Below, piece after piece: positions 2,057 through 57,033 of a DNA stretch of 64,000 nucleotides. Each line of letters starts with the position of its first letter. Position 1 is the first letter of the stretch. The notes under the pieces are model-generated. The model was not told the origin of the DNA, made no database searches, and saw only the letters and a list, made by a program, of their open reading frames with translations. This stretch comes from Deltaproteobacteria bacterium. Its GTDB lineage: Bacteria > Lernaellota > Lernaellaia > JACKCT01. A program made the position numbers and the translations under genes. The stretch spans positions 15,897-79,896 of the forward strand of contig JADLEX010000094.1 of NCBI GenBank assembly GCA_020845895.1, written 5' to 3'.

Positions 2057-3031
2057 GTGGCGTATATCCGCGTCGGCGAAATGCTGGAGCACGAGCAGGA
2101 CAACCTCGAGATGACGCTCATCACCGGGCAGGGCGGACTCGACAACAAGATCTACGTCCCGCACATCCAGAAGCCCGGCCTCGCCATGGCGGGGTACACC
2201 AAACACGTCGTCAACCACCGGATGCAGGTCTTCGGCAAGACCGAGATCAGCTATCTGCACGACCAGAAGCCCGCCGCGGCCCGCAAGATCCTCACCGCGT
2301 TTTTCGAAAAGGGCGTTTGTTGCTGCGTCGTGACGCGGTTTCAGAAAGTCCCCGAAGTCTTCGTGGAGCTGGCCGAATCGTCGAAAACGCCGGTGCTCAG
2401 GACGCGCTTGACCACGCAGGAGTTCATCAATCGCGCGACGCGGTTTCTCGAATCGCGGTTCGCGCGGCGCACCACCATGCACGGCGTGCTCGTCGATGTC
2501 TTCGGCGTCGGCGTGCTCATGCTCGGCAAGAGCGCCATCGGCAAGAGTGAATGCGCCCTCGATCTCATCCTCAAGGGCCATCGCCTCGTCGCCGACGACA
2601 TTGTCGAGCTCGCCCGCGGCGGACCCGATTCCATCAACGGGCGCGGCCCCCAGATCACCAAGTACCTCATGGAGATCCGCGGCCTCGGCATCATCAACAT
2701 CAAGGAGATGTTCGGCATCGGGGCGATTCGCGACAAGAAGAAGGTGCACCTGGTGGTGCGTCTCGTGGAGTGGAACGAAAACACCGAGTACGACCGCGTC
2801 GGCCTCGACGACCAGTTCTACCAGATCCTCGGCGTCGAGCTGCCGATGGTGACGATTCCCGTCCGTCCGGGCCGCAACCTCACCGCCATCGTGGAGGTCG
2901 CCGCGCGCAACCACCTGCTCAAGCTCGAAGGCTATCACGCGGCCAAGGAGTTTCAGGACGGATTGCTCGCGAAAATCGCGGGGCAGGAGGAGAAGGTCTC
3001 CGACGACGACGTGCTCGAGGAAGCGGAATGA
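2057..3031 (+). CDS. hprK: HPr kinase/phosphorylase
   Basis: HGVLVDVFGVGVL, P-loop GKSAIGKS, LVADD, MEIRGLGII, PVRPGRN; GTG start at 2057 inferred (track ORF begins upstream). Confidence 0.95.
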   Translation: MAYIRVGEMLEHEQDNLEMTLITGQGGLDNKIYVPHIQKPGLAMAGYTKHVVNHRMQVFGKTEISYLHDQKPAAARKILTAFFEKGVCCCVVTRFQKVPEVFVELAESSKTPVLRTRLTTQEFINRATRFLESRFARRTTMHGVLVDVFGVGVLMLGKSAIGKSECALDLILKGHRLVADDIVELARGGPDSINGRGPQITKYLMEIRGLGIINIKEMFGIGAIRDKKKVHLVVRLVEWNENTEYDRVGLDDQFYQILGVELPMVTIPVRPGRNLTAIVEVAARNHLLKLEGYHAAKEFQDGLLAKIAGQEEKVSDDDVLEEAE

Positions 3032-3900
3032 AAGACGTCTCGATCCTCATTCTGACCGGCATGTCGGGGTCGGGGAAAAGCATCGCGATCAAAGCGCTCG
3101 AGGACATCGGTTATTTCTGCATCGACAACATGCCGATCGCCCTATTGCCCAAGCTGCTGGAGCTTTCGGACACGGCGTCGGAATACACCCGCTATGCCCT
3201 GGTCATGGACAGCCGCGCGGCGAACTTCACGGACGAGTACGACCAGATCCGCAAGTCCTCGATCGACGCGGGCTATCCCATCCACACGGTTTTTCTCGAC
3301 GCGTCGGACGAGAGCCTCGTGAGACGGTTCTCCGAGACGCGTCGCCCGCATCCGCTCGACGCGACGGGCGACCTGATGGAGGCGATCCAGAACGAACGCG
3401 AGCGCCTCGCGCATCTGCGCGCCGCGGCCGACGACGTGATCGACACGTCGAGCCTGTCGGTGCACGATCTGCGCCGCGACCTGCAGGAGCGATTCGGACC
3501 CTCGGGCGACAAGTTTCCCCTGCGCATCACGTTTAAGAGCTTCGGCTACAAGTTCGGCGTGCCGACCGACGCCAACCTGATGTTCGACGTGCGCTTCCTG
3601 CCCAACCCCTACTTTGTTCCCGACCTCAAACCGTTCACCGGACGTGACGAAAAGGTCGCGGAATACGTCCTGAATCAGGACGTCACGAAACGTTTCGTCG
3701 ACACCGTCGCCGAGTTCCTGCGCTTCCTGTTGCCGTATTATGAGAAAGAAGGTAAGCACTACCTCACCGTCGCCATCGGCTGCACCGGGGGAGCCCACCG
3801 TTCCGTCGCGATCGTCGAACATCTGGCGAAGACCTTTCGGACGGGGAAACACCAGTCCACCGTGGTTCACCGGGATCTCAAACGATATCAGGAGCCCTGA
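3028..3900 (+). CDS. rapZ: RNase adapter RapZ (YvcJ family P-loop protein)
   Basis: TGMSGSGKS, GYFCIDNMP, SFGYKFG, DVRFLPNPY, GCTGGAHRSV; ATGA overlap with hprK. Confidence 0.95.
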   Translation: MKDVSILILTGMSGSGKSIAIKALEDIGYFCIDNMPIALLPKLLELSDTASEYTRYALVMDSRAANFTDEYDQIRKSSIDAGYPIHTVFLDASDESLVRRFSETRRPHPLDATGDLMEAIQNERERLAHLRAAADDVIDTSSLSVHDLRRDLQERFGPSGDKFPLRITFKSFGYKFGVPTDANLMFDVRFLPNPYFVPDLKPFTGRDEKVAEYVLNQDVTKRFVDTVAEFLRFLLPYYEKEGKHYLTVAIGCTGGAHRSVAIVEHLAKTFRTGKHQSTVVHRDLKRYQEP

Positions 3901-56250: not shown

Positions 56251-56285
56251 TTGCCTTCTCGGCCACATATAGATATATTGCTATA
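56251..56285 (+). promoter_or_regulatory. Sigma-70 promoter with an overlapping ArsR-type operator
   Basis: TTGCCT(56251)-N17-TATATT(56274); inverted repeat TATAG-N8-CTATA (56268-85) spans the -10. Confidence 0.65.
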
Positions 56286-56297
56286 CAAGAGGTGGTC

Positions 56298-56633
56298 ATG
56301 GCGACCGACATGCTTCCCCAGTTCGACTTCGCGCCCTTTACGAACCGCCAGTGCGACGGCATCGCCGAGCTGCTCAAGGCGGTGGGGCACCCGGTGCGTC
56401 TTCGTGTGATCGACACGCTCGCGCGCGGTGAGATCTGCGTGGGCGATCTGGCGCTGGCGATCGGCGAGAAACAGGCGATCGTGTCGCAGCAGCTCAAGAT
56501 CCTGCGCATGGTGGGGCTCGTGAAGACCGAGCGGCGGGCTGGCAAGGCGTTCTACCGGCTCAACAACCAACACCTCTACGACCTGCTTTCGTGCATGCAC
56601 CGATGCGCGTGTTCGCAGTTTCCGGAGGAGTGA
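56298..56633 (+). CDS. ArsR/SmtB-family transcriptional repressor, Cys-rich
   Basis: KAVGHPVRL, EICVGDL, VSQQLKILR..GLV..ER.G...YRL, C-terminal SCMHRCAC. Confidence 0.9.
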   Translation: MATDMLPQFDFAPFTNRQCDGIAELLKAVGHPVRLRVIDTLARGEICVGDLALAIGEKQAIVSQQLKILRMVGLVKTERRAGKAFYRLNNQHLYDLLSCMHRCACSQFPEE

Positions 56634-56640
56634 GAAACCG

Positions 56641-56826
56641 ATGTCCGTGAACGACCTGTGGATTGTGGGCTTCCTCGTCTTCTGGATTCTGCTCCAGACG
56701 GTGATTCTGCCCAAACTGGGCGTGCCCACCTGAGCGAGCAACGCCTGTCGTCTGGATGACGGCAAAAAGCCCAAAGCGCGCGAATCCGAAAACGTCGAAA
56801 ACGCCCCCGGCCCGGAGGGAGGGTGA
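56641..56826 (+). CDS. Putative membrane-anchored small selenoprotein (61 aa, Sec at codon 31)
   Basis: MSVNDLWIVGFLVFWILLQTVILPKLGVPT-UGA(56731)-ASNACRLDDGKKPKARESENVENAPGPEGG-stop; hairpin 12 nt after the UGA; readthrough stop lies 3 nt before the next ATG. Confidence 0.7.
56746..56764 (+). other. Putative bacterial SECIS element 1
   Basis: UGUCGUC-[UGGAU]-GACGGCA (7 bp, one G:U) starting 12 nt after the UGA; G in the apical loop. Confidence 0.62.
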
Positions 56827-56829
56827 GTC

Positions 56830-57033
56830 ATGCCGATTTACGTCTATCGTTGCCGCGTCTGCGGCGAACAGTTCGATAAGCTCGTTTCGATCGGGGCCGC
56901 GAGCCAGCCCCAGACCTGCCCGCAATGCGGCGCGTTCGACGCGCAGAAGCAGATCGCCGCGCCCAGCGCGGTGCCGTCCGCGAAAGGCGGCGGATGCTCC
57001 TCGCCCGCGGGCGGCGGATTCACCTGAGGTTGA
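56830..57033 (+). CDS. FmdB-family zinc-ribbon protein, probably a selenoprotein ending ...GGGFT-U-G (otherwise stops at 57027)
   Basis: [12 protein letters not shown]...CPQCG zinc ribbon; [22 protein letters not shown]; hairpin 12 nt after the first TGA. Confidence 0.75.

Follow-up and report, generated by a model that had tools for sequence, protein, structure and literature searches.

An in-frame UGA that most likely encodes selenocysteine in a small membrane protein gene upstream of fmdB, and the unannotated bacterial family around it

In the stretch of DNA analysed here (64,000 nucleotides in full, referred to below as the window, with positions counted from its first letter), a small gene lies between a gene for an ArsR-type regulator and a gene for an FmdB-family protein. 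Comparison with related loci indicates, with high confidence, that the interval 56641–56826 is a 61-residue selenoprotein of an unannotated family. The protein would be single-pass, with the signature (V/I)LPKLG(V/I)xT-[Sec/Cys] (Sec, selenocysteine), usually followed by a cysteine a few residues on (U31-ASNA-C36 in the window). The in-frame UGA at 56731 most likely encodes Sec, and what looks like a gene of 30 codons very probably supplies only the first half of a 61-residue membrane protein. The family is widespread, and most likely a genuine selenoprotein family that had escaped annotation; a function for it is proposed below.

The small gene begins with the ATG at 56641 and runs for 30 codons, MSVNDLWIVGFLVFWILLQTVILPKLGVPT, to a TGA at 56731–56733. 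Beyond this codon the same frame is open for a further 30 codons, ASNACRLDDGKKPKARESENVENAPGPEGG, up to a second TGA at 56824–56826. An earlier sequence-only reading had described this frame (a ribosome-binding site, 30 codons, the TGA at 56731, 30 more codons and a stop 3 nt before the next ATG), and each of these elements was found in the sequence. The hairpin that it had reported, with 7 bp and a G-containing 5-nt loop 12 nt past the TGA, is likewise present, at 56746–56764. The features of the gene, including a hairpin of the bacterial selenocysteine insertion sequence (bSECIS) type, are as follows.

56641–56826, + strand: proposed 61-residue selenoprotein frame including the true stop, MSVNDLWIVGFLVFWILLQTVILPKLGVPT-U-ASNACRLDDGKKPKARESENVENAPGPEGG (sequence, family comparison)
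56624–56630, + strand: Shine-Dalgarno-like GGAGGAG, 10 nt 5′ of the small-gene ATG (sequence)
56656–56712, + strand: hydrophobic segment, residues 6–24 (LWIVGFLVFWILLQTVILP), one transmembrane helix (sequence; AlphaFold2 model of a Cys-form homologue)
56701–56730, + strand: family signature VILPKLGVPT (alignment A4)
56731–56733, + strand: in-frame UGA, the candidate codon for Sec31 (all 62 of 62 distinct contexts have TGA as their first stop; aligns with TGC (Cys) in homologues)
56746–56748, + strand: Cys36 codon TGT, candidate partner in a U-x4-C motif (Cys at +5 kept in the U-x4-C subgroup and in Cys forms)
56746–56764, + strand: bSECIS-like hairpin UGUCGUC-UGGAU-GACGGCA, 7 pairs (one G-U), starting 12 nt past the UGA, −9.0 kcal/mol
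56824–56826, + strand: true stop TGA of the extended frame, 3 nt 5′ of the fmdB ATG at 56830 (sequence; same arrangement in the close relative L081)

When metagenome contigs were scanned with the 61-residue product as query, 66 loci (L081–L146) were recovered, and each of them carried (V/I)LPKLGV-x-T followed by a stop. Counting later finds, about 80 related loci retain this motif ahead of a TGA. That first stop was TGA in 67 of 67 loci, and in 62 of 62 distinct contexts after removal of duplicates. The second stop, which ends the extended frame, was TGA in 37 cases, TAG in 14 and TAA in 10. About 31 tail types are represented in the family, and the all-TGA pattern is therefore not a single inherited event. 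If the UGA were a real stop, the gene would encode a 30-residue membrane peptide, with the hairpin and the open frame as regulatory RNA or as chance features of GC-rich DNA. We consider this improbable, as a first stop that is invariably TGA contrasts with a TGA share of 61% at the next stop.

Substitution patterns indicated that the sequence past the UGA is translated. Mismatches were counted by codon position (1/2/3) from 245 pairs of related sequences, as follows.

5′ of the UGA: 734/257/1676
UGA to second stop: 963/793/1622
60 nt past the second stop: 1050/1051/1032

The third-position bias in frame 0 lasted up to the second stop and was flat afterwards, and the tail therefore evolves as coding sequence. 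Judged by these substitutions, the tail is coding in the UGA frame, under weaker constraint than the helix. A bias that extends to the second stop and is gone beyond it also argues against termination at the first. Conservation past the UGA, which the sequence-only reading had named as a check on its proposal, was thus found: homologues keep both the UGA and coding sequence after it. Between the window and the 89%-identical L081, four of the tail changes are synonymous and at third positions, three replace a residue, and one 3-nt insertion keeps the frame. The length of the open frame past the UGA was also considered as evidence and was dropped, because GC-rich DNA leaves other frames equally open; the +1 frame after the UGA was open for a median of 42 codons. 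Such long open frames speak, if anything, for a real stop.

Protein databases were then a source of Cys homologues. A single-sequence protein search with the small product returned no match. With the 30-residue N-terminal part as the phmmer query against 1.84 billion representative proteins, 10 of 10 matches ended just before the UGA residue. The null single-sequence search and the all-TGA metagenome matches had suggested a family lacking Cys homologues, a view that was overturned by a profile search. The profile was built from 28 family members (alignment A4), all Sec forms, and retrieved 3613 proteins at E ≤ 1. Across the phmmer and profile-type searches, 129 family proteins were retrieved and classified by the residue at the UGA position: 85 ended at the preceding T, 18 had 'W', 25 had Cys and one had another residue. 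About 80% of these 129 members are Sec forms, with the profile itself built from Sec forms.

The 25 Cys forms read mostly ...LPKLG(V/I)PT-C-(M/L)-S-G-(A/S)-C..., and so the Cys-for-Sec homologues of the type PT-C-xxxx-C, sought on the suggestion of the sequence-only reading, do exist. In L155, the sole Cys form checked at the codon level in DNA, a genuine TGC stands at the UGA position. That Cys homologues read on through TGC into a conserved x4-C is a further point against a real stop at 56731, in favour of which it may be said that the databases hold only short forms of the family (fragments of 29–53 residues).

The 'W' forms raise the alternative that the UGA is read through without Sec, by near-cognate insertion of Trp, Cys or Gly or under a reassigned code. 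Leaky UGA stops do occur in bacteria, and gene callers produced 'W' forms by way of code 4. In L154 (1629–1826), the only 'W' form for which DNA was read, the codon is TGA. The 'W' forms are attributable to a gene caller that used the UGA=Trp code (code 4) on an ordinary bacterial contig. Full-length 'W' versions are present in public protein sets for L154 and for P0022, P0024, P0026, P0029 and others, and at least one 'W' entry also shows 'W' at its own true TGA stop. Within the window, UGA serves as an ordinary stop, since arsR and fmdB each terminate at TGA. Together with the 37 of 61 second stops that are TGA, this shows that the code is standard. The base following the UGA is variable in the 62 contexts (G 42, A 12, C 7, T 1), the aligned residue is Cys, the usual counterpart of Sec, and both the position of the hairpin and the G in its loop agree with the bSECIS model. 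Each of these points counts against non-Sec read-through, which we regard as the least probable of the alternatives, with very little chance of being correct.

The hairpin after the UGA was compared across the family. In the window, 19 nt separate the UGA from the apical loop UGGAU. The hairpin has no T-run and is not terminator-like, and no terminator-like site occurs there, a further point against a real stop. Of 60 distinct sequences, 58 had a hairpin past the UGA with a perfect stem of 5 bp or more, and in 52 the apical loop started 18–23 nt from the UGA. The loops were GGC (15), GGU (11) and, for the remainder, almost all G-containing. The stems vary among subgroups, for example GCGUCG/CGACGC, CCUCGGCC/GGCCGGGG and GCCCCC/GGGGGC. 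Pairing reached 90.5% of stem cells in the largest subgroup, as compared with 30–60% when the partner column was slid, and compensatory double changes occurred in 3 of 8 pairs. The synonymous change from TGT to TGC between the window and L081 converts the U·G pair of the hairpin to C-G, and the distant relative L152 has an identical UGGAU loop on a near-identical stem.

[quoted passage not shown] In our own implementation, which allowed perfect stems only, 53 of 63 distinct family sequences passed, including the window, so that the hairpin of the sequence-only reading fits the published model. Among controls, 9.7% of dinucleotide shuffles passed, as did 8.5% of 2107 positions elsewhere in these loci. 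RNAalifold found no consensus over all 60 sequences because the hairpin register shifts between subgroups. No SECIS-type match and no other element near the small gene was found in Rfam.

Several observations weigh against the selenoprotein reading. The substitution and stop-codon counts come from related sequences, and their independence is overstated. Taken by itself, the window hairpin is not significant (p = 0.10 when its best hairpin is set against shuffles; z = 0.18 for the 76-nt fold), which counts in favour of a real stop; its significance comes from the comparative data, not from the window alone. Ten of the 63 family sequences failed the strict filter with perfect stems only. Among four distinct Cys forms with DNA, two had no such hairpin, one had a weak one and one a strong one. 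The strong case, L159:1266–1439 (also L160 and L161; PT-C-MANSC), carries an 8-bp hairpin 19 nt past the TGC, where Sec forms have theirs. Part of the hairpin signal could therefore reflect peptide coding or a recent Sec-to-Cys conversion, of which the L159 hairpin could be a relic. Conservation of the tail is weak, with no downstream Cys at all in one subgroup, so a fixed intramolecular Se-S pair cannot be universal. Gene neighbourhood is the sole basis of the functional proposal given below. Finally, neither the 64-kb window nor the fetched loci yielded selA, selB, selD or tRNA-Sec, in a search of low power that used E. coli SelA, SelB and SelD sequences as probes and ARAGORN for tRNA-Sec.

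This last result bears on whether the family is genuine and the window copy a relic, in a host that has lost the Sec machinery or makes only the truncated peptide. A screen of the 64 kb for further UGA-split genes gave no convincing case either, returning only adjacent same-frame genes and shadow frames. A 64-kb window is, on the other hand, far too small to expect sel genes, and nothing in the reading frame, in the hairpin or at the 3-nt junction with fmdB is broken. The same features are kept in L081, where the tail changes include synonymous ones and an in-frame indel. A relic is accordingly given about the same low probability as a real stop, and a functional Sec codon is preferred.

A second UGA-split gene was identified in locus L147, which comes from a 611-kb contig, at 2779–3318 (− strand), 3 kb from the small gene. 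A 41-residue open reading frame ends at a TGA (FG-U-IL-C) and continues in frame into a called AhpC-TSA_2 gene. The joined product scored 111.7 bits against NF040769, 'SelL-related redox protein' (E = 2.9e-32, cutoff 120), over positions 2–172 of 173. From its sequence, this split gene is probably a selenoprotein, and it would be an independent sign of Sec use in a family-bearing host, lending indirect support to the Sec reading of the small gene. It sits in a DUF302-OsmC-SelL-like cluster that faces a group composed of extracytoplasmic function (ECF) sigma and anti-sigma factors, thioredoxin and the small gene (X in the gene orders given here).

The protein itself has a short acidic N-terminus, a hydrophobic helix and basic residues after the helix. 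Because of this charge distribution (the positive-inside rule), an N-out, C-in orientation is inferred, which would put both Sec31 and Cys36 on the cytoplasmic side of the membrane. When a Cys-form homologue was modelled with AlphaFold2, a single helix at residues 2–24 (predicted local distance difference test, pLDDT, about 90) was followed by a low-confidence tail. The model is thus a lone helix rather than a thioredoxin fold, and the spacer is at least four residues rather than two. In the 28-sequence alignment A4, residues L23, P24, K25, G27, V28 and T30 are invariant, together with the Sec/Cys position. The U-x4-C spacing that the sequence-only reading had emphasized is kept by one large subgroup and by the Cys forms, where C-x4-C is nearly invariant (alignment A5). 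It does not extend to the other subgroups: the partner Cys stands at +6 to +17 or at the C-terminus elsewhere, and no downstream Cys is present in one subgroup of 9 loci.

A mechanism can be proposed on the model of the established bacterial Sec pathway. Ribosomes would start at the ATG at 56641, SelB with Sec-tRNASec would be drawn by the hairpin at 56746–56764, and Sec would be put in at the UGA at 56731. Translation would then continue to the UGA at 56824, 3 nt short of fmdB. Were translation to end at 56733, 96 nt would separate its stop from fmdB, as against 3 nt after read-through. Because the extended frame stops 3 nt before fmdB, the small gene is probably translationally coupled to fmdB in an arsR-X-fmdB operon. 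In the product, the invariant LPKLGVxT turn at the membrane surface would bear Sec31, and the disordered, charged tail Cys36. To judge from neighbourhoods only, such a membrane-tethered selenol/thiol pair may form a selenenylsulfide, carry sulfane sulfur or bind soft metals. Its partners may include YgaP-like transmembrane (TM) proteins, resistance-nodulation-division (RND) pumps, rhodanese, persulfide dioxygenase, TauE, DUF302 proteins and thioredoxins, and in the window it would act under an ArsR-type sensor.

A more specific and rather speculative version, which we think unlikely, is that the protein is a selenium-bearing accessory subunit. It might provide a selenol ligand at the inner membrane face for a transporter (YgaP-like TM with RND, or TauE), so that selenium would be needed to export or sense soft-metal species or reactive forms of sulfur or selenium, with Sec-gated translation of fmdB in addition.

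The surrounding features of the window, all on the + strand, are as follows.

56251–56279, + strand: sigma-70-like promoter match TTGCCT-17-TATATT, 5′ of arsR (weak; consensus match at 9 of 12 positions)
56292–56633, + strand: ArsR/SmtB-family transcription factor gene, 113 aa, Cys-rich C-terminus, TGA stop 7 nt before the small gene (NF033788, PF01022)
56830–57027, + strand: FmdB-family CxxC...CxxC zinc-ribbon gene, 65 aa (TIGR02605, PF09723)

The promoter-like site is a possible promoter of an arsR-X-fmdB operon. The ArsR protein scored 79.6 bits against NF033788, above the cutoff of 55, and also matched PF01022. Its best sub-cutoff score was for the model of the persulfide/sulfite sensor BigR (64.5 bits, cutoff 155), and the TsoR model gave 35.7 bits (cutoff 115). 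Both being below cutoff, no subfamily was assigned. Its five cysteines are C21, C49 and C101/C105/C107, the last three in the C-terminal CMHRCACS. The FmdB protein scored 59.9 bits against TIGR02605 (cutoff 31.3) and matched PF09723 too; its motifs are CRVC and CPQC, and its tail is Gly/Cys-rich. The Shine-Dalgarno sequence of fmdB, GGAGGGAGGG (56814–56823), lies inside the tail of the extended frame. Exact look-ups of the ArsR and FmdB sequences found neither on record. When synteny was anchored on the adjacent uvrB in reference genomes, UvrB identity did not rise above about 65%, which points to the lack of any close sequenced relative, and the arsR-X-fmdB arrangement was kept at no locus.

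Neighbouring genes were counted over 82 family loci, as follows.

YgaP-like transmembrane protein (PF11127): 34 of 82 loci
PG0541-family P-II-like protein, Cys-rich C-terminus: 33 of 82 loci
AcrB-family RND permease: at least 20 of 82 loci
DUF302: 15 of 82 loci
FmdB zinc ribbon (adjacent): 11 of 82 loci
ArsR: 10 of 82 loci
Rhodanese or metallo-β-lactamase (MBL)-rhodanese (persulfide dioxygenase-like), sometimes with TauE: 10 of 82 loci

Further neighbours were thioredoxin/TlpA-like redoxins, OsmC, an ECF sigma/anti-sigma pair, Usp and TPMT/TehB-like methyltransferases. Three contexts, RND-YgaP_TM-X, Usp-X-DUF302 and X-thioredoxin-YgaP_TM, are common to Sec and Cys forms. The arsR-X-fmdB cassette of the window recurs in the distant relative L152, and FmdB genes stand beside the small gene also in L081, L121, L152 and L154. 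The FmdB family is itself listed with Sec-containing members, UxxU (Global Ocean Sampling (GOS) study; PMC13188914). In the RND-linked loci (L095:3490–3774, L126:3315–3509 and about 33 similar ones), a YgaP-like TM gene with a conserved Cys-Pro is followed by the PG0541-like gene and then by the small gene. The C-terminus of the PG0541-like protein carries CxxCxxC (…CAYCKACERNMKMIQWGVEEVV), and its stop falls one codon before the small-gene ATG. These cysteines could be partners for the small-protein subgroup that has no tail Cys. The theme shared by the neighbourhoods appears to be thiol, reactive-sulfur, chalcogen or soft-metal stress at the membrane, and it is because of this theme that the function above is proposed.

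Neither Pfam-A nor NCBIfam release 20 gave a relevant match for the window product, five other Sec forms and three Cys forms, in agreement with the earlier statement that the protein could not be assigned to a family. The only matches listed were at chance level, to ATP synthase subunit B (E about 0.1, about 12 bits, cutoff 183). A PDB profile search and a plasmid tblastn returned nothing relevant, and neither the searchable literature nor the GOS supplementary sequences contained the family motif. A 2026 inventory lists 119 prokaryotic selenoprotein families, and nothing resembling the small protein was found among them (PMC13188914).

Several known systems resemble the small protein in part. 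Like the UxxC/CxxU thiol-oxidoreductase selenoproteins (thioredoxin, Prx-like, DsbA-like and SelL-related), it has a recoded UGA with a hairpin just 3′, Sec/Cys pairs, a nearby partner Cys and redox-type gene neighbours, including the SelL-related U-x-x-C gene in L147. Unlike them, it consists of one TM helix and a disordered tail, has U-x4-C or a longer spacing, spans about 45–75 residues and has no hidden Markov model match. Eukaryotic SELENOK and SELENOS are likewise small, span the membrane once and bear Sec in a tail that is disordered, charged and contains Gly/Pro. The likeness to them is in form only, and no homology was detected; their Sec is beside the C-terminus, they reside in the endoplasmic reticulum membrane and they use a SECIS in the 3′-untranslated region, whereas the Sec of the small protein is at the helix end. 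AcrZ is a single-TM small accessory protein of an RND pump and has no Sec or Cys site. The small protein is comparable as a single-TM micro-protein tied to an AcrB-family pump, as far as genes alone can indicate, since the order RND-YgaP_TM-(PG0541-like)-X occurs in roughly 34 loci, with both Sec and Cys forms. It differs in its Sec/Cys site and gave no Pfam match to the AcrZ family.

Among prokaryotic selenoproteins, a MerT-like protein with a putative role in mercuric transport (PF02411) and a Cu/Zn efflux transporter of the SO_0444 family (NF033936), both implicated in metal handling, are listed (PMC13188914). These share with the small protein a Sec or Cys in a membrane protein and ArsR, efflux and metal-type contexts, but they are multi-pass, with C/SxxU or UxC, whereas the small protein is single-pass and matches neither model. 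TsoA is a 'LULAxC motif selenoprotein' of the Tso operon, which has the ArsR-type regulator TsoR (NF045695, NF045707; Haft & Tolstoy 2025, cited in PMC13188914). Here too a gene with a short U...C motif lies beside an ArsR/SmtB regulator, and the window ArsR weakly resembles TsoR; the small protein nevertheless has no NF045695 match, and the ArsR is far under the TsoR cutoff.

If confirmed, the family would join some 119 prokaryotic selenoprotein families that have been catalogued (PMC13188914), and would be of an unusual type: about 60 residues, one membrane span and mostly in the Sec form. It also marks a blind spot in annotation, where thousands of database entries are 29–53-residue stubs or code-4 'W' mistranslations. 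Selenoprotein prediction methods need annotated proteins that form Sec/Cys pairs, and open reading frames above a minimum length; with stubs of 29 residues, this would explain why the family was missed. The recurrent neighbours (YgaP-like TM, DUF302, PG0541-like and FmdB) are poorly understood, and a reactive Sec site would provide a handle on membrane sulfur, selenium or metal stress.

Other placements of the small gene were also observed. In L086 (1107–1283) and L089 it lies directly 5′ of cydA, which encodes cytochrome bd subunit I, and in L113 (3992–4129) and L116 it directly follows the ribosomal cluster rpsD-rpoA-rplQ. A gene for a GWxTD-domain protein (PF20094) of about 490 residues is convergent beside RND-linked copies in at least 20 loci (L102–L139, 3′ of the small gene, − strand). 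This neighbour probably reflects lineage synteny rather than a functional link.

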